A DNA stretch of 53,738 nucleotides from Chitinophaga pinensis (GTDB lineage Bacteria > Bacteroidota > Bacteroidia > SXHM01), in contig CAMAVO010000001.1 of the NCBI GenBank assembly GCA_945861685.1, positions 1-53,738 of the forward strand, written 5' to 3'. The notes beneath the pieces are model-generated. The model worked only from the letters and a program-made list of their open reading frames with translations. It was not told the DNA's origin and did no database searches. Both the position numbers and the translations under genes were made by a program. Shown one piece after another: positions 6,819 through 49,476 of the stretch; within the stretch, counting starts at the first letter, position 1, and each line of letters opens with the position of its first letter.

Positions 6819-6865
6819 GCCACAGATTCACAGATTTTATGCTTCTTAATCTGTGAATCTGTGGC
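6819..6865. terminator. Word-type palindromic repeat (CACAGAT words) forming a long hairpin
   Basis: gccacagattcacagat-tttatgcttctta-atctgtgaatctgtggc has a perfect 17-bp stem. It lies just downstream of ORF 6882..7538. Confidence 0.7.
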
Positions 6866-6881: not shown

Positions 6882-7538
6882 TCAAATCTCGAACATTTGC
6901 CAGCGGGCATAATCATTCCTGAATACGCTTTGGGCGGCATCGTTCACTTCCTTACATATAGCATAGAGGCGGTTAAATTTTTCCATGCGCTCACGGGTGT
7001 AGCGCAGGCGTTTGCGCTTAAAATATTCCTGATCTATTTCTTTGGTGGCTACGTTTTGGGCAGCGGCTTCAAGGTTGGTTAATACGGCAGCGGGCATGCT
7101 TACTGCCGCAAGGTCTGCGGCATAATCATCGGCCACTTTTTTCATCACCATTAGCCACGATATAAGGTTAAGTGTGCGCGCCCTCAATCCGCTGCGCTTG
7201 TTAAACGCAAATTCCTTTGCTATGCGCTTATTGCCCGGAAATGCCTTTTTTACATAGTATTCAAGGTCCTCGGCAGCCAGTAGGCCTGCTGTTTTTGCTT
7301 TTTCAAGGTCTTCGGTATATCCCGTTTGTTCGTCAACAATAAGCTCGTCAGTCTTTTCACTCGAGCAAATTTCTTTTTGCGCATGCCAGTTATTGGCATA
7401 GGTTAGGTTCAAATCGGGGTCAAATGCAGTAAAAGCTGCCATGTTTTCTACAAAAAGACTGTGCATGGTGCTGCTTTTTTCCATTAAAACAGCGTCTTCC
7501 ATCGCGTAATCACGGTAAACTTGTTGTTGTTCTGTCAT
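6882..7538 (-). CDS. Hypothetical helical protein (orphan family member 1)
   Basis: 218-aa ORF with no recognisable catalytic motif. Shares a by-eye motif (EKAK...KEFAFNKR) with ORFs 40329..41012 and 46763..47695. Preceded by a ~390-bp non-coding leader. Confidence 0.6.
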   Translation of the reverse strand: MTEQQQVYRDYAMEDAVLMEKSSTMHSLFVENMAAFTAFDPDLNLTYANNWHAQKEICSSEKTDELIVDEQTGYTEDLEKAKTAGLLAAEDLEYYVKKAFPGNKRIAKEFAFNKRSGLRARTLNLISWLMVMKKVADDYAADLAAVSMPAAVLTNLEAAAQNVATKEIDQEYFKRKRLRYTRERMEKFNRLYAICKEVNDAAQSVFRNDYARWQMFEI

Positions 7539-7825
7539 TTTTTAAAAAGATAATAATTTATTTACAAGTAGCTAAATTTTATTTGCAAATGTAAACAGTT
7601 TATAATTATATTATAATATTATTTTAGTTAGTTAATAAATTATTAATTTACTTTAAAATATTATTTTGTAAAATATTGTAAAGTAAAGTAGATTTAAAAT
7701 AACAATTAGATAAATTATTATAAAGTATACTTGAAATTTAAATACTTGTAAAAATAATAATATTACTTTGAATTAAAATATGTGCTTTTAATACAAAAAC
7801 AGTGTTTTTTGATTGAAAAGTGCTG
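7539..7825. other. Extremely AT-rich non-coding leader
   Basis: Almost no G/C for about 260 bp. Dense in TAAAATAT / GTAAA words. No ORF. Confidence 0.8.
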
Positions 7826-7910
7826 TTTTTTACCACATAGAAAACATAGTTTAGCACATAGTTTTAAAATCTATGTGGCTTCCTTATGTGAACTATGTGT
7901 CTATGTGGTG
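7826..7910. repeat. Word-type palindromic repeat (CACATAG words)
   Basis: tttttaccacatagaaaacatagtttagcacatag...ctatgtggcttccttatgtgaactatgtgtctatgtggtg: forward words followed by their reverse complements. Confidence 0.8.
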
Positions 7911-7947
7911 AGGGAAATGCCTTTTTAATACATTTGGAGTGAAAAAT

Positions 7948-8472
7948 ATGAGAATTCTACTCTTTATCTTTTTGATTTCTTTTTGTTCTTGTTCAAACAA
8001 GCCTAATGATGAGGAGAATCTAGTAATTCGCAAGAAAGAAAAAATTATTTGCGTTCAAAGAAAACTCAATGCGCTTATAAACAACACTTATCATGATACA
8101 ATTCTAGAGTTCAGAAGTAACATTTATCGTAGTGATCTTTTGATAACCTGTGATACAAACCAAATTGATTTTGAATTAGAAAAAATCCTTCTTGAAAGTA
8201 AATACATGCATCCCTACTATAGAGTTCCAGAATATAAAGGACTTAAGGGATATTTTGAATTTATGATTTGTATGAAAAACATGAATAACAGGAAAGAAAT
8301 TGGGCTTTTTACCTGTTCAGAAACAAAATCTACGGCTGTGGAAACAAAAAGATTCTTGATTGAACATAATAAAATAAAAGGGATTAATGTCTTTCCATTC
8401 GGAGGTAAAGATTTTATAACACCTGAAGAATATGACAAAATGGAGGATGTCTTTGGATGTGGAGTCGAATAA
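7948..8472 (+). CDS. Hypothetical lipoprotein, visibly low-GC gene
   Basis: MRILLFIFLISFCSCSNK is a signal peptide plus lipobox. Composition is much more AT-rich than the flanking genes. Confidence 0.55.
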   Translation: MRILLFIFLISFCSCSNKPNDEENLVIRKKEKIICVQRKLNALINNTYHDTILEFRSNIYRSDLLITCDTNQIDFELEKILLESKYMHPYYRVPEYKGLKGYFEFMICMKNMNNRKEIGLFTCSETKSTAVETKRFLIEHNKIKGINVFPFGGKDFITPEEYDKMEDVFGCGVE

Positions 8473-20807: not shown

Positions 20808-20916
20808 AAAAAATCTGTGAAATCTGTGGTGAAAGAATCTTCGCGGTAAAAAATCTCAGTGCTCTTAGTGTCCTTAGTGGTAAAAAAACCTTTGCGCCTA
20901 GTGGTAAAGAAAAAAA
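20808..20916. repeat. Cluster of four word-type repeats in reverse orientation (each ends GGT[GA]AA...)
   Basis: aatctgtgaaatctgtggtgaaa / atcttcgcggtaaaaaa / tctcagtgctcttagtgtccttagtggtaaaaaaa / cctttgcgcctagtggtaaagaaa. Confidence 0.8.
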
Positions 20917-36686: not shown

Positions 36687-38891
36687 TTAATTCACAATAC
36701 CAATAATCCGCCACAAATTCATGATATTCATGAAAAAAGGGCTGAATTTGTTTTTGCGGAATTGTTCTTCTTCGCGTTTCCAGAAATGGAGGTTGTGAAC
36801 GGGATACAGATATCCGAAATGATAGCAACTGTGTTCGTAATGCTTGGTGCTGAGCAATGCTAAATTGTAACGGTAATTGGGTTCGCGCATATCCACAATT
36901 TTTTGTGCGGCTTTGCGCGTGATAACGGCATTTTCAAGCAGCAGGCTTGCATCTGATTTTTCTTTTTTGATGTTGTATTCACGTTTGGTGATGAGGTATT
37001 CCAGCGTGTGTTTGCGGTGTTCTGCACGCAGACCGGTAATGTCAATTCCCTGTTTCAGTTCATCCAGAATTTGCTGTTGTTGTATTGTGAGTGTTGTGTT
37101 TTTAAGATTGCTCTCCAGAATTTGCGAGTAGCCTTTGGTGGTGGACGAAAAATTATCAAGTAGTGGGAGTTTTTCGGTGCGAATTTTTTGCAAGGTTTCC
37201 AAATCTGATTTTTTTGCAAGCCATTTGTAATGCCACTCGGGACGTGGGTGAAACTCAATATTTAGGGCTCCCGGCAATTCATCGGTGGCGGTTGATGCAG
37301 TCATGTAACGCATCATTTCTTTCTCTTTCAGAAAATTATTTTGGAGATTTAGATTCTCTTCAAAGTAATTCGCGATGTCATGGTTATTAAAAATCTCGGT
37401 GATGTATTGTGTTGCTGTCGGTTGCTCCGCAATTTTATTTGTTTCATATTTCCAACTCCAGCGCGCAATGCTCCAGTCGAACAGCCAGTAGCCCCATTCC
37501 CAGCCCGAAGAAAAGGTAACGTGTCCCGGAATTTGTAATGAATCCATCAACAGAATATCGTCTAATCTTCCGCTGAGGTAAGGGAGCAGCAGCATGGGGA
37601 TAGAATTATCAAACGTAATCCAATAGGCTGATTCAGGATAATACCAGGTTTCACGTGTTTCTTTTTCTTTCAGCAATAAGTCAAGCATGTGGCGCAGGTT
37701 TTTGTTGCGGTATACGGGTGCTTTTTCTTCTGAAATGGTGTAGAACATAACCGTGTGTATCAATATACCGCGGTTTTTATCCAATGCAGTTTCTTCTGCA
37801 TTCATGATGTAATCTTTCTTCTTTTTCTTGCCGCCTATTTCTGCTGTTTCTTGCACCACGTGCTTGCGGCCCATCAGTTTGGAGTTGTATTTTTCTTTCA
37901 ATTCTTTACCAAGATGCAGTTGCAGCTTTTTCTTTTTCTTAACGTTGCCGCTGCTGAATTCGGTGGCCGAAAATTCTACATTCAATACATCCCAGTCAGC
38001 TGCAAATAGTTTAGCAAGACGAATATCCATCTGCTTTTCTTTGCTGCGCCATGATGCCGGAAAATTACGGTACAACTGAAAAGCCTTTTGCTGCAGCATG
38101 TGCAGCGATACATCAACGCCTGCAATTATTCCACGCTGATGACAATAGTCTGTTATTTGCTTGGAGAAGGCGGGCCACTCGTTCAGGTCAATACTTTCGA
38201 GCAGATTGAACTCAAAGTAATTCTGTCCGTTGCGGGCCAGCCAGTTGATGTATTCTTTCACCTGTTCTATTCCTCCGGGATAGTTGTGATCCAGCAAAGG
38301 CTCTGTCAACTCCAGCGGATGTTGCGTGTGGAGATGAAATCCTTTTTTGTCAAAGCGCGGTGTGGCTTTCCACTCAAAGGTTTCGGGCAATGGCCAATTG
38401 GTCCATTGCGGAATAATCTGTTCGCGGGAATGGTAAAATTTGAAGCCCAATTTTTCCTGCAACAAACCATACAGGGCACAACTTATTCCAAAGTAAGTAG
38501 GTGTTTCAAGTGTGAGAATTATTTTTCCGTTTTGCTTTTTTGATGTCCAGTTGTAATGGTGAAGTGGAACGTGGAGGTAGGGATAATTTGCAGTTTCTTC
38601 AAACGTGCTTTTATCGGCAGCTTTTGCAGTATCAATTTGCGGAAGTAGGATTTGAATTTCGCTTGCAGTGTTATTCAGTTCCACTTTGCAATTGCAGGCT
38701 TGCTGCAACAATTGCTGCACATCTTCAATTGCTAATTTGCTGACAGAGTTTTCTAAATTCTGTGGCGGGGTAATGATGGAAATGTTTTGCTGCGCGGATG
38801 CAGAAAGAGAAAATAAAAAAAACAAAAAAGGCTTCGACAGGCTCAGCCTGACATAGGTTAGGGTCACAGTGAGCTTGTCGAAGTGTTTCAT
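36687..38891 (-). CDS. Large secreted hypothetical protein (possible TIM-barrel glycosidase-like core)
   Basis: 734-aa ORF with hydrophobic leader PFLFFLFSLSASAQQ. Function not recognisable. The start is uncertain because the first ~20 codons are a repeat element. Confidence 0.5.
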   Translation of the reverse strand: MKHFDKLTVTLTYVRLSLSKPFLFFLFSLSASAQQNISIITPPQNLENSVSKLAIEDVQQLLQQACNCKVELNNTASEIQILLPQIDTAKAADKSTFEETANYPYLHVPLHHYNWTSKKQNGKIILTLETPTYFGISCALYGLLQEKLGFKFYHSREQIIPQWTNWPLPETFEWKATPRFDKKGFHLHTQHPLELTEPLLDHNYPGGIEQVKEYINWLARNGQNYFEFNLLESIDLNEWPAFSKQITDYCHQRGIIAGVDVSLHMLQQKAFQLYRNFPASWRSKEKQMDIRLAKLFAADWDVLNVEFSATEFSSGNVKKKKKLQLHLGKELKEKYNSKLMGRKHVVQETAEIGGKKKKKDYIMNAEETALDKNRGILIHTVMFYTISEEKAPVYRNKNLRHMLDLLLKEKETRETWYYPESAYWITFDNSIPMLLLPYLSGRLDDILLMDSLQIPGHVTFSSGWEWGYWLFDWSIARWSWKYETNKIAEQPTATQYITEIFNNHDIANYFEENLNLQNNFLKEKEMMRYMTASTATDELPGALNIEFHPRPEWHYKWLAKKSDLETLQKIRTEKLPLLDNFSSTTKGYSQILESNLKNTTLTIQQQQILDELKQGIDITGLRAEHRKHTLEYLITKREYNIKKEKSDASLLLENAVITRKAAQKIVDMREPNYRYNLALLSTKHYEHSCYHFGYLYPVHNLHFWKREEEQFRKNKFSPFFMNIMNLWRIIGIVN
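38832..38883. repeat. Palindromic intergenic element (CTTCGACA...TGTCGAAG) overlapping the ORF start
   Basis: cttcgacaggctcagcctgacataggttagggtcacagtgagcttgtcgaag. Confidence 0.75.
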
Positions 38892-38906: not shown

Positions 38907-40256
38907 TTATTTCCCCGTATAATTATAAGGCGTAATTGCCAGCATTTCCTTTTTCACTTTATCAGAAACGTTGAGTGATTTGATAAAAGCTGCAATGCTT
39001 TCCTTGCTTATTTTTTCGTTTTTGCGGGTAAGGTCTTTCAGTGTTTCGTATGGATTTTTGTAGCCTTCTCTGCGCAGAATAGTTTGCAAAGCCTCGGCAA
39101 CAACAGCCCAGTTATTTTCTAAGTCGCGGTCAATAGCTTCTTTGTTCAGCACTAATTTGTCCAGCCCTTTTTGAATGGATTTGAAAGCAATGAGTGTATG
39201 TGCCAGTGGCATGCCAATGTTACGTAACACTGTGCTGTCTGTTAAGTCGCGTTGCAAACGGGAGATGGGAAGCTTAGCCGAAAAATGCTCAAACATCGCA
39301 TTTGCAAAACCAAGATTTCCTTCTGCGTTTTCAAAGTCAATAGGATTTACTTTGTGCGGCATGGCTGATGAACCCACTTCACCGGCTTTGATGGTTTGCT
39401 TGAAATAATCCATGGAGATATAGGCCCACATATCGCGGCAGAAATCAATCAGGATAGTGTTAATGCGTTTTTGTGCATCGCACCAGGCAGCAAGATTATC
39501 GTAATGTTCAATTTGCGTTGTGGTTTGCTGACGTTGTAAGGTGAGGTAATGATGCAGAAAATCATCAGCAAATTTTTTCCAATCAACATCAGGATAGGCA
39601 ACATAATGTGCGTTGAAATTTCCGGTGGCACCACCAAATTTTGCAGTGTAAGGAATGGCTTCAAAGTGTTTGAGCTGTACTTCAAGCCTCTCAGAAAAAA
39701 CTTTTATTTCTTTTCCGAGGCGGGTAGGGGAGGCGGGCTGTCCATGGGTATGAGCAAGCATTGGAATGTTTTTCCAATCTTTTGAAAGCAAGTTCAGTTT
39801 TGCAATTATTTTTTTCAGATCAGGAATAAAAACTGCAACAGCAGCCATTTTCATCATCAGCGGAAACGCAGTGTTATTAATATCCTGCGAGGTAAGCCCG
39901 AAGTGCACAAATTCCTTCTCGTTTTTAAGTCCCAGCTTTTCCAGTTTCTCTTTCACAAAATACTCAACCGCTTTTACATCGTGGTTGGTGGTTTTTTCAA
40001 TTTCCTTGATGCGTGTTGCGTCTTTTTCTGTAAAATCCATACTTAGTCCGTCCAGCTCAAAGCGCATTTTCTTGGTCACCTTTTTCAGGGCGGGCAAGGG
40101 AATTTCGCTCAGGGCGCAGAAATAATAGAGCTCAACCGTTACGCGGTATTTAAGAAGCGCGTATTCAGAAAAGTAGTGAGCCAGTTCGGCAGTCTGTTTG
40201 TGGTAACGCCCGTCAACAGGTGAAATGGCGGTAAGCGGAGAAAGGTTTTTTATCAT
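38907..40256 (-). CDS. purB: Adenylosuccinate lyase
   Basis: GSSAMPHKVNP signature; 449 aa. Confidence 0.95.
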   Translation of the reverse strand: MIKNLSPLTAISPVDGRYHKQTAELAHYFSEYALLKYRVTVELYYFCALSEIPLPALKKVTKKMRFELDGLSMDFTEKDATRIKEIEKTTNHDVKAVEYFVKEKLEKLGLKNEKEFVHFGLTSQDINNTAFPLMMKMAAVAVFIPDLKKIIAKLNLLSKDWKNIPMLAHTHGQPASPTRLGKEIKVFSERLEVQLKHFEAIPYTAKFGGATGNFNAHYVAYPDVDWKKFADDFLHHYLTLQRQQTTTQIEHYDNLAAWCDAQKRINTILIDFCRDMWAYISMDYFKQTIKAGEVGSSAMPHKVNPIDFENAEGNLGFANAMFEHFSAKLPISRLQRDLTDSTVLRNIGMPLAHTLIAFKSIQKGLDKLVLNKEAIDRDLENNWAVVAEALQTILRREGYKNPYETLKDLTRKNEKISKESIAAFIKSLNVSDKVKKEMLAITPYNYTGK

Positions 40257-40301
40257 AGAGAAAAAGAAAACGCGAAGGTAGAAAAAATACCCCCTCTTGC
40301 T

Positions 40302-40324
40302 CTCCCCCTTAAAACAAGGGGGAG
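40302..40324. repeat. Short hairpin repeat CTCCCCCTT-AAAAC-AAGGGGGAG
   Basis: A related copy lies at about 19540-19565 (ccccatccttaaacaaggaggggg). Confidence 0.7.
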
Positions 40325-40328
40325 TTAG

Positions 40329-41012
40329 CTACCCCACCACCGCTATCTGCATAGCACTGTAAGGTCCGCTGTTTTCTGCATTTCCTGCAATTGCCCATCT
40401 AAAATAAAAATAAGCCCACTTTCCAATGGCATCTTCCGGCATTTTCATAATAAAATAAGTTTTGCCGGTGGTAAAGGCATTTACACATTGTTCAATTGGC
40501 ATAGTAAGCACACGGTGCCCATACCAGTAGCGCACCTCTACTACATCTGCAAGCGGGTGTTTACCGCGTCTGCCATCCTGATTAGCTCTGCGCACACGTA
40601 TTTTCAGTTGACCACCGCCAATTGATTGCACATGGGCATCGGGCGATTCTTCAATTTTTCCGCGTTTGCTGTAGGGGCGTTCTTTTTTGCGCAGGTTAAA
40701 GGTAAGACGGTCGCTTTCGGTGGCATAGCTTCCGCTCATTTGATTAAGGACAGGTTGTGCAAACCGGGTAAACTCTTTTTTTATTCTGTTTTTTTCGGCA
40801 GTTACTGCCATTGTTCGCTTACTCAGGTCAGTATATTTTGGATACATATCGTCCCATAGGTTCATGAATTCAATCCACTTGTTTTTGTCAGATTCAAGAA
40901 GGCGAAGTCGCTGCCAGGTTGGCGGTGTGCCGTTAAGCAATGCAGCAGTAGTGCGGTAGATGTAATTACTGAATTCGGTGTCTTTTTCAGGGATGCGGTT
41001 ACGTCTGAGCAT
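40329..41012 (-). CDS. Hypothetical protein (orphan family member 2): helical N-domain + beta-rich C-domain
   Basis: 227-aa ORF. The C-terminal motif YFYFRWAIAGNAENSGPYS suggests a beta-sandwich. No catalytic motif. Confidence 0.6.
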   Translation of the reverse strand: MLRRNRIPEKDTEFSNYIYRTTAALLNGTPPTWQRLRLLESDKNKWIEFMNLWDDMYPKYTDLSKRTMAVTAEKNRIKKEFTRFAQPVLNQMSGSYATESDRLTFNLRKKERPYSKRGKIEESPDAHVQSIGGGQLKIRVRRANQDGRRGKHPLADVVEVRYWYGHRVLTMPIEQCVNAFTTGKTYFIMKMPEDAIGKWAYFYFRWAIAGNAENSGPYSAMQIAVVG

Positions 41013-41044
41013 GGGATTTATATATAAAATGCAGTTGCGAAGGT

Positions 41045-41359
41045 ATAAAAAATATGTACGGAACTACACAATCGTTGCGTTACAGCGTAAAATATATGTA
41101 CGGAAGCGCTTCGCGGTTAGGTAGCAATACTTTAAATGGATGTTCCAATACTATAAATATGTACGCAATAGTATACTGGAGGCATCAGGGACTGTAAAAT
41201 ATGTACGGAATGGTATAACATGTCCGTCATACATTATAAAATATGTACGGAGAACTCTGATGTTAAGACTACAATGCTTGACAGTAAGCTGACAGGGATA
41301 AAAATATGTACGGAACGTTGTGAGGTTAGGGTTACACGCTGCAATACATGTACGGAGCT
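41045..41359. repeat. Phased array of 7 x AAAATATGTACGGA-type motifs
   Basis: The core ATGTACGGA (once ATGTACGCA) starts at 41054, 41096, 41159, 41201, 41243, 41306 and 41348. Confidence 0.9.
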
Positions 41360-42254
41360 ATGTGTTATTAAGCTGATAATGCTTCTTCAAGGTCTTCGTC
41401 CTTCTGTCCTCCCCATCATGGCTCCAGCCCGGAGGATAAAACAGATACTTCAGCTTAGAGCTAAACGAAGGTGAGCGTTTTAAATCATACCAAAGGTCGC
41501 GGAACGACCCGAATTGGCTCTCGCTGAAATTGCGCGGGTCTGTGCCTTTTAAAACGCCATATGTGGGCAAATCTTCTTCGGGTGTGTAGGTGCCAAACAG
41601 ATGATCCCAGAAAAGAAATATCTCTGAGTAATTGGTGTCTAAATATTTTATTTCCTTGCCGTGGTGCACACGGTGTACGGAAGGAGTAATCAGAATTTTG
41701 TCAAGCACCGGCAGGCGGTTTACAAAACGGATATTCACATGCTCAAATAATCCCCACAGTTTTGAAATTGTTTCGGTAATCAAAAACAACATTGGATGAA
41801 AACCCAGTAACGGCATCCACACAAAAAACACAGGCGAAAGAATAAAGTCAAACATAGAGCCACGGATACCCGAGGTCAATCGCATCTCCTCACTGGTATG
41901 ATGCACGCTGTGTATGCACCACAGCAGCCTCACCTCGTGCGACCAGCGGTGCAGCCAGTAAAAAGAAAAATCATACAACAGGAAACAGGCCACCCATACA
42001 TACCACTCAAAACCCAGCGTAAAAAAACGGTATTGCCAACACAGGCTGATAATAGCAAAGTTGTAAAGCACCTGTGCCAAGGCAATGCTGCCGAATGCAA
42101 ACAAACCCGAAACCATGCTCACTATCCCGTGCTTTACATCGGCCTTTTCTTTCATCCAGCGCAGCAGAATACCTTCCGCTATCATGCTCGTGATGGCTAT
42201 CACATACAATCCGGGGCCAACAAAATCATAAATGTGCTGGAGTTTTTCTTCCAT
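41358..42254 (-). CDS. Fatty acid hydroxylase / sterol desaturase-family membrane protein
   Basis: His boxes HRWSHE, HSVHH and HRVHH, plus several TM helices. Confidence 0.85.
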   Translation of the reverse strand: MEEKLQHIYDFVGPGLYVIAITSMIAEGILLRWMKEKADVKHGIVSMVSGLFAFGSIALAQVLYNFAIISLCWQYRFFTLGFEWYVWVACFLLYDFSFYWLHRWSHEVRLLWCIHSVHHTSEEMRLTSGIRGSMFDFILSPVFFVWMPLLGFHPMLFLITETISKLWGLFEHVNIRFVNRLPVLDKILITPSVHRVHHGKEIKYLDTNYSEIFLFWDHLFGTYTPEEDLPTYGVLKGTDPRNFSESQFGSFRDLWYDLKRSPSFSSKLKYLFYPPGWSHDGEDRRTKTLKKHYQLNNT

Positions 42255-42595
42255 GAAAGAATGAAATGAAAAACAAACTTAGGAAAAATTGCAGGCATAG
42301 GCTTAGGAAAGACATTCAACTATATTATAAGTTTCGGGTTGTCTGATTTCTTTCACCTACATGATTATTACTCCAGAAATGGGAACAGAAATCTTGGCTA
42401 TTATAATTCAAGAAACGGACATTTTAATTTGTGAAGCAAAACTGAATTTCGTTATCAAAACTGAAATAGTTGCATTATAAAAAAATGGCAAAAGGCTAAT
42501 TTTATTTAACTAGGTTTCAAACAATAATCTTTATCTCTTATTAGGTTTGATTCCTCGAGACTTGCCTTCTAAAAGAATGTCTATCTTGCCTTACG

Positions 42596-42978
42596 ATGAC
42601 CAAAGATAGTAAATACCTGCATAAGAGTCATAATGTTACAATATTGTTGTATTATATTGTAAGCAGGGCAAAGTATAGAAGAGTAGCTTTTACAGATGAA
42701 GTAAATAAGATATTATTAAATATATAGAATTGAGATATGAAATTAGATTTTTAGAAATAGGAACATCAATAAAGAGTCTGATAGGGAGAAAAGTATTTAT
42801 TCAGGTTCCAAGTGTGAAGAAACAGTTGTGGGGAGGAGAATTTTGGGGCAAGGAATATTTTGTGAGTAAAGTTGGTTAACATGGAACGGAAAAGAAAATT
42901 TCGGAATATGAAAAGAATCAAGGGGTTGAAAATGAATACAAGCAATTTAAAGAAAACTAGCAACTCAAATTATTATAA
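42596..42978 (+). pseudogene. Decayed IS200/IS605-family (Y1/HUH) tnpA
   Basis: MTKDSKYLHKSHNVTILLYYIVSRAKYRRVAFTDEV... then a frameshift. It continues IELRYEIRFLEIGT/SIKSL...VKKQLWGGEFWGKEYFVSKVG*HGTEKKISEYEKNQG. The segment that should hold the HxH motif is missing, and there are in-frame stops. Confidence 0.7.
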
Positions 42979-43020
42979 TGCCTCGTGGGCTTGCCCTGAG
43001 GATTCTTCTCAGGGGGATAA

Positions 43021-43055
43021 CTAAGAGAGGCGGTTCATTGAACCGCCTCTCTTAG
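43021..43055. terminator. Perfect 15-bp-stem hairpin
   Basis: ctaagagaggcggtt-cattg-aaccgcctctcttag. It overlaps the stop codon of ORF 43052..44932. A second hairpin lies at 42994-43014. Confidence 0.65.
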
Positions 43056-44932
43056 TTTAGTGAAATCTCTTCCCACTCCACACTGAATTGCGGCTTGTAA
43101 ACAAACTCGCGGTCGGTGTAAACAAATTTGATTGCTTTTACTCTCTCGCCTTTCAGGCTATCGTTATACTGTGTTAAATAAGGTGCTGCCCATATTCCGC
43201 TTTCGGTGTTTTGAACTACAAGTCGGTGCTTTTTAATGCTGTCGTTATGTAATTGATACATCATATAATATTCAGGCTCTTTGTAAAATGAATGTTTGAG
43301 TTTGCCCACGAATGTTCTGTCAATGGTAAACTTCATGCGCAGTGCAATTCCATTTGATAATTCGGGAAGTGGCGTCCACTCGTTCCAATTGATGGTGTTG
43401 ATGTGATTAAATTTTTCAACTGTTAATTTTTCTTTTTCAGTGCGTTTGAGAATGCGCACTTTTTCATCTTCATAAATCTGTGCGTAATTATTCAGGATGG
43501 AAAAATTCACCTGTCCGTCATCACTTAAAATGTAGCGGTGGTCAACACTGCTCATTTCTTGTCCCCACCAATTTTGTTTGGTCCAGATATAATAGAGTGG
43601 CGCTTTTTCGGATTGCAGAAAATCTGCATTTACTTTATCGAGCACAGCATTATTTACACAGCCTAACTGAAACAGCGGACGGTTTCTGTAGTTCAGATTA
43701 TTAGCCGCAACGTAGCTTGTTTCCCAAGGAAAAATGTCAACGGTATTGTTGGCAATAATTTTCCGGGCGCTGTCGGCTAACATAACGTTGGCAAGGTTTT
43801 GTTCTGATTGTTTGTTGAACTCTTCTCCCCCATCGCGGAAGATAGATACGGCTCTTTTGAAATTGGCAATGCCTCCGTATTTCATTTTTACTTCAAGGTG
43901 AAAATGTCCTGTTTGCAGAATGTTTTGGTAATAGAGATAGGGAATGGCAATAAGAATAGCAATGCGAAGTCCTCCTATTTTTTCATCGGCAAGAAACAGA
44001 ACGCCACCAAACAAAATCAGAAAATCAAAGAATGCTTTAGCGTGATAATTTTCTTCGCGGGCAATTGAGTAGCGGAATACTGCCCACAGTGCAAATGCAA
44101 AAATCACATACACTGTGTTTACATTTTCGTTGCTGAACAGGTACCAATATCCTGCAAGAAAAATCAACATCAGTGAGAGTAAAATTTTATCATTAGGAGC
44201 ATTTGTAGAAGTTGCACCGAGATTTCCGATGCTGATGAAAAACCAATTACGCAGGTGTAACAAGCTGCCGTCTAAATTGTGATTGATAACGAGCCACAAC
44301 AAAAAATAAATGCTGAAACCAATTCCAACGGTGAGGAAAAGATTGTTGATTTTTTTAGTTCGGATAAAATCAAGAACCAGATAAGATGCCGCCATCATTA
44401 CCGATGCGGCTGCAATATTCAGCTTTACAAAAAACGAAAGCGCGGTAACAATAATTGCAATTAAGAGAAACTGATTTTTGCGCGTGACAGCTTGCAGCAC
44501 TAATGCAAACGCAACGGAGCCAATCATTTTTTCGTCAATGCGCAGGTTGGCACTTAGTAATAAAGCAGCAATTACAGCAAGCCAAATTCCTTTTTGTTTT
44601 ATGTGTTTTGTTGCCTGAAAAACAAGCCACACAAAAAGCAATTGAAAACAAAATGTAAAACAAAAGGTGAGTAAATAATTATTTCCTATCAGCAGCGGAA
44701 AACGGATAAAGCCTAACGGACCGTAACTGAAAATTGCATCAGTGCCGTGCGAAATTCCCTGATTGAAAAAATAGTTGAAACAAAAAACGTATCCCTGATC
44801 TAAGCCGGTGCCGATAACAGGATCGAATTCCGGGAAGGTGAAAATTGCCAGAAATAAAATGAAGGTTACTGATAGAAGATTGCTTCTGTCGCTGAAAAAG
44901 CTCCATCGCAATGACGTTGCTTGATTACTCAT
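43052..44932 (-). CDS. Polytopic membrane protein, unknown function (possibly GT-C-like)
   Basis: About 10 TM helices in the first 330 aa, with an acidic first loop (PEFDPVIGTGLD), then a ~290-aa soluble domain. Confidence 0.55.
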   Translation of the reverse strand: MSNQATSLRWSFFSDRSNLLSVTFILFLAIFTFPEFDPVIGTGLDQGYVFCFNYFFNQGISHGTDAIFSYGPLGFIRFPLLIGNNYLLTFCFTFCFQLLFVWLVFQATKHIKQKGIWLAVIAALLLSANLRIDEKMIGSVAFALVLQAVTRKNQFLLIAIIVTALSFFVKLNIAAASVMMAASYLVLDFIRTKKINNLFLTVGIGFSIYFLLWLVINHNLDGSLLHLRNWFFISIGNLGATSTNAPNDKILLSLMLIFLAGYWYLFSNENVNTVYVIFAFALWAVFRYSIAREENYHAKAFFDFLILFGGVLFLADEKIGGLRIAILIAIPYLYYQNILQTGHFHLEVKMKYGGIANFKRAVSIFRDGGEEFNKQSEQNLANVMLADSARKIIANNTVDIFPWETSYVAANNLNYRNRPLFQLGCVNNAVLDKVNADFLQSEKAPLYYIWTKQNWWGQEMSSVDHRYILSDDGQVNFSILNNYAQIYEDEKVRILKRTEKEKLTVEKFNHINTINWNEWTPLPELSNGIALRMKFTIDRTFVGKLKHSFYKEPEYYMMYQLHNDSIKKHRLVVQNTESGIWAAPYLTQYNDSLKGERVKAIKFVYTDREFVYKPQFSVEWEEISLN

Positions 44933-46762: not shown

Positions 46763-47695
46763 TTATTCCTTCACCATCCTGATATTACAAACCGTATCCC
46801 TGTTTTCGTGCAGGGTAATTTCGGGTTCAACCGATGTATAGCCTTGCAAGGTGGCGGTTAGTTTTTGTTCGTCCATCAGCGAGGTGGTGAGTACAAATTT
46901 TCCGTCAATGGCGGTGATGACTTTTTTGCGCCCATCCGCTAATTTGAGTTGCACGTGCTCAAGCGGCATACCCGTTTCGCTGTCGGTAACAGTGCCCATC
47001 ACTTTCTTTTTGTAGCCTTTGCGGGCATAATGTACGCCCCATCTGCGGGCATGTTCGCGCATGGATTCGCGCTTTTGTTCGCTGTAAAAAACCTCTGCCT
47101 CGCGCCATACTTTTTTTATTACACCGTTTGCCTCTTTGTTCAGGCGCTGAATATCTTCCTGTGCATTGTCAAGTGCATCTTTGGCATTGCTGCCGGTAGA
47201 TATCAGGTTTTTGTAAATGACAAAAATATCCTCAATCTCATCTGCCGAAGGACGGCTCATGGGTGAGCCACCCTGTGCAATACGAGCCTGCTCGCCCGTA
47301 ATTATATTTCGGGCAACGGTAGTTACCTGACGCTCTAACTGTAGAGCGGGCACTTTATCGTTTTCAACATCCAGCTGATAAAAGGCGCGATGACCTGCGG
47401 GATACTCGCCCCGTTTTACACACATATTAAATACCTGAATAAAATGCGAACAATACAGGGCTACCTTTTCGCGCATCTTTTCTTTTTCAGCCATAAGCCC
47501 AACCGACTGGGCTTTTTTTGCACCCATTTGAGCCATTTTGATGTTGTATTCGGGGTATATGGCAAGTAAACGGTCTTTAGTACGTTGGGTAAGCGGATTA
47601 TTTAAGCCTGGATTAGCGTTTTGTGTAAACGCTGTCATTAGCGCTTTCTGGCGATCGAAATTTGACTTAGGGTAGAACTTTGCCTCTGCTGACAT
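46763..47695 (-). CDS. Hypothetical protein (orphan family member 3): helical N-domain + CarboxypepD_reg-like C-domain
   Basis: 310 aa. The C-terminal VMGTVTDSETGMPLEHVQLKL...DGKFVL...LQGY pattern is typical of the carboxypeptidase-regulatory-like fold. Confidence 0.6.
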   Translation of the reverse strand: MSAEAKFYPKSNFDRQKALMTAFTQNANPGLNNPLTQRTKDRLLAIYPEYNIKMAQMGAKKAQSVGLMAEKEKMREKVALYCSHFIQVFNMCVKRGEYPAGHRAFYQLDVENDKVPALQLERQVTTVARNIITGEQARIAQGGSPMSRPSADEIEDIFVIYKNLISTGSNAKDALDNAQEDIQRLNKEANGVIKKVWREAEVFYSEQKRESMREHARRWGVHYARKGYKKKVMGTVTDSETGMPLEHVQLKLADGRKKVITAIDGKFVLTTSLMDEQKLTATLQGYTSVEPEITLHENRDTVCNIRMVKE

Positions 47696-47772
47696 TTTTT
47701 TAAGTTTTAGGTGCTAAAAATTGAATTTTGAATACAAAATATGATTTACCAAGGTGCTAATATATATATTTT

Positions 47773-47880
47773 TATACTAAAGTAAAGTTTAGTATATTCT
47801 TTTATTAATTATTTTTAAATAAACTATACTTTAGTATATACTAAAATTAAGTTTATTGTAATAATCTTAGTTTTAGTACA
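47773..47880. promoter_or_regulatory. Phased palindromes TATACTAAA/TTTAGTATA in an AT-rich leader
   Basis: TTTAGTAYA starts at 47788, 47830 and 47872 (42-bp steps). Inverted partners lie at 47773 and 47837. Confidence 0.6.
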
Positions 47881-49412: not shown

Positions 49413-49476
49413 TCACCACAGATTACACAGATTATCACAGATAAAATCTGAGCAAATCTGTGTAATCTGTGGTGAG
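49413..49476. repeat. Word-type palindromic repeat (CACAGAT words)
   Basis: tcaccacagattacacagattatcacagat-aaaatctgagca-aatctgtgtaatctgtggtga. Confidence 0.85.

Follow-up and report, generated by a model that had tools for sequence, protein, structure and literature searches.

A row of 21-bp-phased direct repeats upstream of an unannotated Bacteroidota gene family as a probable regulatory protein-binding element

Within the 53.7-kb stretch of DNA that we analysed (hereafter the window), the space upstream of a gene for a basic protein of 227 amino acids (40329..41012, − strand) is taken up by seven copies of a 17-nt core that are set on a 21-bp lattice (41046..41356, − strand), and each of the 24 related loci that were examined has a lattice of the same period. 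Array and gene together look like a two-part unit that has so far escaped description, and a search of the full-text literature returned no description of a 21-bp array tied to this protein family; an earlier note on this DNA likewise named no described Bacteroidota element with such a layout. The array is probably a protein-binding regulatory element. More specifically, and with clearly less assurance, we propose that it may be a cis-regulatory row of sites which are bound cooperatively on one face of the helix, and that the binder may be the product of the adjacent gene, which would then regulate itself. Phased arrays of sites are known from plasmid iterons, from centromeres, and from a small number of virulence promoters; in the present case such a geometry constantly accompanies an unannotated, chromosomal, single-gene unit across hundreds of protein clusters. 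What is unusual is the family-wide conservation of a period without conservation of sequence, and its attachment to a new protein family.

An exact-match search returned all seven of the motif positions, and all of the steps between them, that had been claimed for the array. The word ATGTACGGA starts on the + strand at 41054, 41096, 41201, 41243, 41306, and 41348, and a variant copy, ATGTACGCA, starts at 41159, so that the core-to-core steps are 42, 63, 42, 42, 63, and 42 bp. Under random phases, the probability that six gaps would all be multiples of 21 is ~1e-8. No further exact copy of either word lies outside the array in the 53.7-kb window, which was the only part of the genome searched. 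The core word originally proposed is real and occurs in seven copies, but it turned out to be longer than was claimed, since a logo built from 56 copies of nine species shows a highly informative, conserved word of 17 nt, which on the gene (−) strand reads TCCGTACATATWTTnTA. Defined in this way, and always on the − strand, copy 1 (promoter-proximal) occupies 41046..41062, copy 2 occupies 41088..41104, copy 3 (the variant TGCGTACAT, which reads ATGTACGCA on the + strand) occupies 41151..41167, copies 4, 5, and 6 occupy 41193..41209, 41235..41251, and 41298..41314, respectively, and copy 7 (distal) occupies 41340..41356. The G variant of copy 3 is also found at some copies in two related loci, L042 and L008. 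The T-rich half of copy 7 is degenerate (CCGTACATGTATTG), and the counterpart of this copy has decayed in L001 (CCGTAAAGCC). The A-tract that was said to accompany each core is present, but it is weaker at the copies starting at 41159 and 41348.

Three peaks stood out in the autocorrelation of the region 41045-41365, namely lag 42 (0.43, z 6.1), lag 105 (0.49, z 7.3), and lag 147 (0.55, z 8.9). When the cores were masked, identity at lags 42, 105, and 147 was only 0.33-0.43, and the super-period is therefore mainly a matter of core positions, as had been judged by eye.

The array fills the whole gap between the upstream stop codon and the gene, just as was first described. Its distal copy (41348-41356) stops 1 nt short of the stop codon (41358-41360) of the upstream neighbour, an FA_hydroxylase gene (41358..42254, − strand), and at the other end the CGTACAT of the copy at 41054 begins 48 nt, on the gene strand, before the ATG at 41012. 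The GC content of the array is 37.7%, compared to 45.5% in the flanking genes, and there is no distinct AT-rich block. Copy 1 abuts a putative Bacteroidota sigma-A −7 box, TACCTTCG (41038..41045, − strand), which was read from the sequence and follows directly after the last array unit. The box has one mismatch to the Bacteroidota consensus TAnnTTTG, and 25 nt lie between it and the ATG. A perfect TACCTTTG is found at the corresponding place in L007, L078, and L049, and TAnnTTTG occurs ~18-49 nt before the ATG of other genes in the window. We found no conserved TTTG −33 element at the window and the related loci that were compared, and it is the proximal core that occupies that region.

Just past the stop codon of the 227-aa gene are weak terminator-like hairpins (40274..40335, − strand), the best stem of which has no immediately adjacent T-run, and a second putative TACCTTCG box (40273..40280, − strand) lies 16 nt before the ATG of purB (40256). 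Because of these hairpins and the second box, the 227-aa gene appears to be a unit of its own, with a promoter-like box beside the array, which suggests that purB may have its own promoter and that the array would serve the 227-aa gene only.

We compared the window with nine close, non-redundant loci from other samples or species (L001, L004, L007, L008, L042, L058, L063, L070, and L072), whose proteins are 57-96% identical to the 227-aa protein of the window. Synteny in this close clade places the locus between the atp operon/hydroxylase and purB/FBPase. In all nine loci, 5-7 CGTACAT cores precede the gene (the exact-match count is five for L070 and for L072), the steps between cores are 42, 63, or 84 bp, and the last core starts 48 nt before the ATG in every case. 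The sole off-lattice step in the clade is one of 64 bp, rather than 63 bp, in L042 (1266-1330), whose protein is 95.6% identical to that of the window. Relative to the window, the cores are 76-99% identical and the spacers 45-59%. The view that motif and phase are what is conserved therefore stands, as both are kept in all nine orthologous loci, and the test for a loss of phase among them gave the reverse result, with the 21-bp lattice retained in every locus examined. In L070, DNA identity is 92% over the gene and 82% at its third-codon positions, but only 45% in the spacers; arrays have thus been rebuilt with core and lattice kept. Arrays are identical between independent samples of one species (L001-3 and L004-6), and so they are not hypervariable. 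Furthermore, L007 has a different upstream gene (DUF2490) and the array is still present, from which it follows that the array goes with the 227-aa gene.

The units in L004, L063, L070, and L072 alternate in an A-B1-A-B2 order with an 84-bp super-period, and the B rows are common between species. We rejected a CRISPR, given the 17-nt unit, the fixed multiples of 21 bp, and the intervening sequence that is common between species in these same four loci; a scan of the nine nearest ORFs also showed nothing cas-like. Tandem promoters of the ECF-sigma type (AAC-N17-CGTA) were likewise rejected, as that pattern fits some spacer rows and fails in the B2 rows and in L008.

The ORF at 40329..41012 had been called an orphan. 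That description does not hold, since it belongs to a sizeable, unannotated family. A first homologue search with the 227-aa protein gave 11 clusters (57-100% identity), and a profile search of 1.84 billion representatives gave at least 489 clusters at E<=1e-3 and 263 at E<=1e-10. Nearly all members are 220-250 aa long. Source names, where given, do not go beyond “hypothetical protein”, and such organism labels as were seen refer to Bacteroidia or Bacteroidetes MAGs. The family had no match in Pfam, NCBIfam, PADLOC, PHROGs, or the PDB sequences, and the empty PADLOC and PHROGs searches led us to rule out a defence system or a phage protein. The proteins are basic, with a pI of 9.85 for that of the window and of 9.6-10 in 9/10 tested. 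An AlphaFold2 model of the 227-aa protein (pLDDT 94.3, from a 141-sequence alignment) has an N-terminal helical domain (helices 11-26, 40-61, 68-93, and 99-105) and a C-terminal, FN3-like beta-sandwich of seven strands. Foldseek searches of the PDB and BFVD matched the model to FN3 domains only, and on its C-terminal half; no recognised DNA-binding fold was found in this confident model by the same searches. Loops with the conserved residues R148, H152, R205, and W206, and a basic linker at 109-121, are candidate sites of contact with the cores.

Fourteen more distant loci (L073, L075, L077-L080, and L082-L089) encode proteins that are 24-55% identical to their respective retrieval query, and members outside the close clade were also seen to be sited among housekeeping genes. 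Each of the fourteen has a large upstream gap with a 21-bp-period array, and each array is built from its own unit. The unit is AACCCAAAGGATTTCAAACAG in L073 (13-14 copies), AAAC-N4-GTTT plus a free spacer in L075 and L079 (about 10), AATCTAAAGACCGAGACACTT in L080 (six), TTATCAGATGTAACAAAT in L082 (about 6-7), ACAAYCTGTTGCCGCMCGGCT in L084 (11), AGTCGTCTTCTCAAGAAGATA in L085 (eight), AATAT(GG/CC)ATAT in L086 (12), CTTAAGGATA in L087 (12), and CGTAG-ACAC-CTACG in L089 (11 or more), while L083 has ten copies of two alternating units around ACATGT. L078 has about nine 21-bp repeat units, and the arrays of L077 and L088 are weaker, although their top lags still deviate from multiples of 21 by no more than 1 bp. 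In L075, L079, L086, and L087, conservation is confined to 7-8 of the 21 positions. Five arrays contain conserved short dyads, for example CGTAG-N4-CTACG and TCTTCT-CA-AGAAGA, as would be expected for the operators of a dimer.

A further member came from a genome-wide scan for CGTACATAT-N33-CGTACATAT pairs, which led to a contig from Tannerella (L049). Its array has ten 21-bp units centred on (T)GTAC(G/A)TACATAT; TACCTTTG comes next, and after it a truncated ORF with a match to the family profile (E 2e-6). The L049 protein is only distantly related to that of the window, yet the CGTACATAT core is common to both. Conversely, the proteins of L080 and L083 are 51% identical and their array units are unrelated. 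Protein similarity and site similarity thus appear to be only loosely coupled. These loci have no other gene in common, and the conserved unit is therefore the array plus the gene.

Based on these observations, we infer that a sequence-specific DNA-binding protein occupies the row of sites from the upstream stop codon to the −7 box. As 21 bp corresponds to two helical turns, the bound molecules would face one side of the DNA and could bind cooperatively; indeed, an exact two-turn lattice, a core of 10-17 bp that is selectively conserved between free spacers, dyads in several lineages, and an array that ends at the core promoter form, when combined, the hallmark of such binding. The suggestion in the earlier note of proteins bound along one face of the helix is thus strongly supported by the comparative data as regards the placement of the sites, and binding itself is deduced from that placement. 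The note had named a regulator array as one of several options, and this is the option that appears to fit best, with the array ending at the putative −7 box of what looks like a single-gene unit with its own terminator-like hairpins. The proximal site would occupy the position of the −33 element, and the bound complex would therefore switch the promoter on or off, steeply and cooperatively, in a control that may be positive or negative. The most likely binder would be the product of the 227-aa gene. We rank self-binding first because the sequence of the site changes between lineages and the adjacent gene is the only constant partner. Counted against it are the core of the window clade, which has no dyad and recurs every 42 or 63 bp rather than every 21 bp, and the reading is further weakened by the lack of a recognised DNA-binding fold and by the loose coupling of protein and site.

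These weaknesses bear on whether the sites are instead those of a trans-acting regulator encoded elsewhere (a LytTR-type or other response regulator), with the 227-aa protein as its regulated cargo, which we consider unlikely. Such regulators can generate a period of this kind. The sites of LytTR proteins (AgrA/AlgR/ComE), which have an all-beta DNA-binding domain, are 9-10-bp direct repeats with 11-12-bp spacers, and so have a 21-bp period (PMC2766830). Similarly, BvgA binds the Bordetella promoters Pptx and Pfha as six dimers that follow each other at intervals of 22 bp along a single face, with the proximal dimer abutting the core promoter/−35 and the sites reaching about 150-300 bp upstream, and its cooperative binding leads to switch-like control (PMC7250471). 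With its two-turn spacing, single face, and proximal site abutting the core promoter, BvgA is the closest worked example of the geometry. However, it is a helix-turn-helix response regulator of the NarL/FixJ type that is encoded elsewhere, has many targets, and recognises weak inverted heptads at 22 bp, whereas the array of the window has strongly conserved direct repeats on a 21-bp lattice, is tied to one gene family, and has a candidate binder only. The likeness to LytTR sites lies in the 21-bp period, which is family-wide here; in contrast to the one pair of repeats per promoter that is normal for LytTR, the window has seven 17-nt cores at 42 or 63 bp. The family protein gave no match to LytTR, and AgrA was not in the top 50 Foldseek hits. 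An assignment of the array to LytTR promoters would therefore not be warranted.

Besides the absence of a recognised DNA-binding fold in the family protein, a trans-acting regulator is favoured by further arrays, stepped at 42 bp and built on this core, that lie beside unrelated genes in other Bacteroidota (L012, L048, L051, L028, and L068; see below), and by a stand-alone gene for a 111-aa LytTR-domain protein that lies divergently upstream of the array in L077 (3904-4239), although in that one locus only. Nevertheless, no regulator gene is common to the loci, and the unit differs in nearly every lineage, so that a separate regulator would need to co-vary with one target everywhere. The 6-14 sites per array are also far above the usual pair. 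Finally, neither the remainder of the window nor the flanking DNA at the orthologous loci contains the core word, and even its CGTACAT 7-mer occurs outside the arrays only four times in the 117 kb that these comprise, which is below chance.

The number of sites exceeds the needs of simple autoregulation, and this raises the idea of a non-transcriptional nucleoprotein landmark (iteron-, centromere-, or titration-like), in which the protein would polymerise so that DNA is marked, paired, or organised, with any effect on its own promoter being incidental. We think this improbable. Its appeal is in the layout, as phased direct repeats upstream of the gene for the binder, a conserved core, free spacers, and lineage-specific sites are all features of iterons and centromeres. 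Iteron-Rep modules (F RepE/oriS, P1 RepA/incC, pPS10, and R6K) have 4-9 phased direct repeats of ~19-22 bp directly upstream of a gene for a protein of ~230-300 aa, which binds them and autoregulates, and the sites are lineage-specific. In plasmid centromeres such as ParR/parC (R1 and pSK41) and StbA/stbS (R388), the repeats recur every 10-20 bp and are bound by small proteins of the ribbon-helix-helix or helix-turn-helix type.

The module described here resembles the iteron-Rep arrangement (for a review, PMC4980987) in its phased repeats directly upstream of a gene of similar size and in its lineage-specific site sequence, but it lacks a winged-helix Rep fold, DnaA boxes, and a clear unwinding element, and it is chromosomal, syntenic, and vertically inherited. 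Although the geometry is that of an iteron replicon, we therefore rejected this class, as we found no winged-helix Rep (e.g. Pfam Rep_3), no DnaA boxes, and no mobile replicon. A replication origin was rejected too, since there was no DnaA box (TTATCCACA, allowing <=1 mismatch) in 39000-43500, that is, within ~2 kb of the array, and no GC-skew switch. Likewise, tblastn searches with P0001 against phages and with P0161 against plasmids gave no match, which, along with the chromosomal, syntenic setting among housekeeping genes, speaks against a plasmid, a phage, or another mobile element. The likeness to plasmid centromeres is in the tandem phased repeats upstream of a gene, which in the plasmids encodes the coating protein; in contrast, the protein of the window is a helical bundle plus an FN3-like domain, and its locus is chromosomal. 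As is reported for StbA, such a centromere system can work without an NTPase of its own (10.1101/2022.04.29.490116). A plasmid-type centromere was nonetheless rejected, given that there is neither a ribbon-helix-helix or helix-turn-helix binder fold, nor a small centromere-binding protein, nor a ParA/ParM/TubZ neighbour. The iteron and centromere-like options of the earlier note have accordingly been set aside.

We also considered whether the repeats act as RNA or single-stranded hairpins. Their transcription would come, for example, from hydroxylase read-through or from a promoter further upstream, and the hairpins would be bound by the protein or affect translation. Every unit in L085, L089, L084, and L086 has arms of 3-6 bp around a centre of 2-4 nt, the L089 array reaches to within 12 nt of the ATG, before a Shine-Dalgarno-like AAGGAG, and a search for terminators between the hydroxylase gene and the array was negative. 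However, the core of the window has no hairpin potential, the fold z-scores of the array (−0.87 and −0.84 for the two strands, versus shuffles) are no better than those of shuffled sequence, and Rfam 15 gave no match over the array at E<=1; the last two results also exclude a known structured RNA. In addition, the −7 box lies at a normal distance downstream of the array in the Bacteroidota members, and the arms are conserved without co-variation around a free centre, which is the pattern of an operator. A role for the repeats as hairpins is therefore very unlikely. A coding repeat, a heptad repeat, or a multi-core peptide precursor was excluded by stops in all six frames (window, L073, L075, and L079); as read from the sequence, the + strand ATG inside the motif heads only tiny ORFs, and its context changes.

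The explanation to which we give the least credence is that there is no sequence-specific partner at all, and that the array is either a curved or structural upstream element or a neutral minisatellite maintained by unequal crossing-over. Near-identical units, as from recent homogenisation, are seen in L073, L084, L085, and L089, and the arrays of the window and of L073 are predicted to be curved by a wedge model (end-to-end/contour ratio 0.65, z about −3). The other 12 of the 14 arrays are not predicted to be curved by this model, and the phased A-tract curvature that had been offered as another possibility is consequently not a conserved property. Moreover, the window clade keeps only the 17-nt core and has replaced its spacers, which is expected from selection on sites and not from homogenisation, nor would a neutral minisatellite hold its period at exactly 21 bp, stay 48 nt from the ATG, and remain linked to one family over 24-100% protein identity.

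A row of protein-binding sites, with the product of the adjacent gene as the leading candidate binder, therefore remains our preferred reading. Carried further, into more doubtful territory, the helical plus FN3-like protein could represent a new class of sequence-specific DNA-binding protein that polymerises on its own array, one dimer for every two turns, and the self-contained, vertically inherited module could be a bistable or ultrasensitive switch, or a nucleoprotein landmark, that is widespread in uncultured Bacteroidota and undescribed. If the protein does bind its own array, the architecture would be new, and the family would offer a natural series of protein-site pairs with diverged specificity, of use both for tracing the evolution of recognition and as orthogonal parts in Bacteroidota engineering. 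If some other factor binds, the arrays would be the best lead so far to an uncharacterised regulator of these uncultured lineages from freshwater and soil. The rule that a 21-bp array stands next to this family can be tested directly with one purified protein and one DNA fragment.

Similar repeats were also encountered away from the family. Long arrays in Arcicella lustrica and A. rosea (L012 7721-8000, L048 153-490, and L051 6511-6930) have a 42-bp unit composed of TGAAATCGTACATATATGAAA and TTCAATTTTTAGGTCTATGTC, and contain CGTACATAT. Those of L012 and L051 are upstream of an unrelated gene for an all-helical hypothetical protein of 234 aa, which is followed by an amidase-like gene; hmmsearch and hhalign led us to reject the possibility that the 234-aa protein is a hidden member of the family. 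Other intergenic arrays, stepped at 42 bp and with CCGTACATAT or TCGTACATRTAC cores, were seen in a Flavobacterium sp. (L028 4027-4258, where there is a 21-bp sub-period) and in a Dysgonomonadaceae locus (L068 4544-4775), in neither case beside a family member. Possibly, 21/42-bp upstream arrays are a more general habit of Bacteroidota, of which our scan could find those with 42-bp spacing only.

The CGTACATAT-N33-CGTACATAT pair was also present in 12 loci of a Lachnospiraceae MAG from horse faeces, JAKSRM01 (L013, L018, L022, L024, L040, L044, L046, L053, L055, L060, L064, and L071), which suggests a dispersed repeat family unrelated to the module of the window. Perfect 21-bp tandem arrays of 4-9 copies that contain CGTACAT, and that may be coding repeats, were found in unrelated phyla (L017, L036, L052, and L057, from Magnetococcales; L031, from Treponema; L020 and L025).

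Several other features of the window were recorded along the way. Two large ORFs near the array have no Pfam match (36687..38891, − strand, 734 aa, and 43052..44932, − strand, 626 aa), and the 734-aa ORF is conserved beside purB in L004 (91% identity). The region 7511-7840 gave a high lag-21 autocorrelation, which was attributed to its extreme AT-richness only. A second repeat with a 42-bp period (47767-47878; TRF score 105, 2.7 copies) is AT-rich, contains the perfect palindrome TTTAGTATATACTAAA, and lies upstream of a gene with a CarboxypepD_reg domain (46763..47695, − strand). The short repeats CACAGATT and AATCTGTG occur in three intergenic places (6821-6863, as an inverted pair, 20811-20828, and 49417-49442) and may be operator sites of some regulator. 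Lastly, a cluster of CACATAG and CTATGTG in both orientations (7836-7907) follows a very AT-rich intergenic stretch of 300 bp and lies just upstream of the ORF at 7939..8472.
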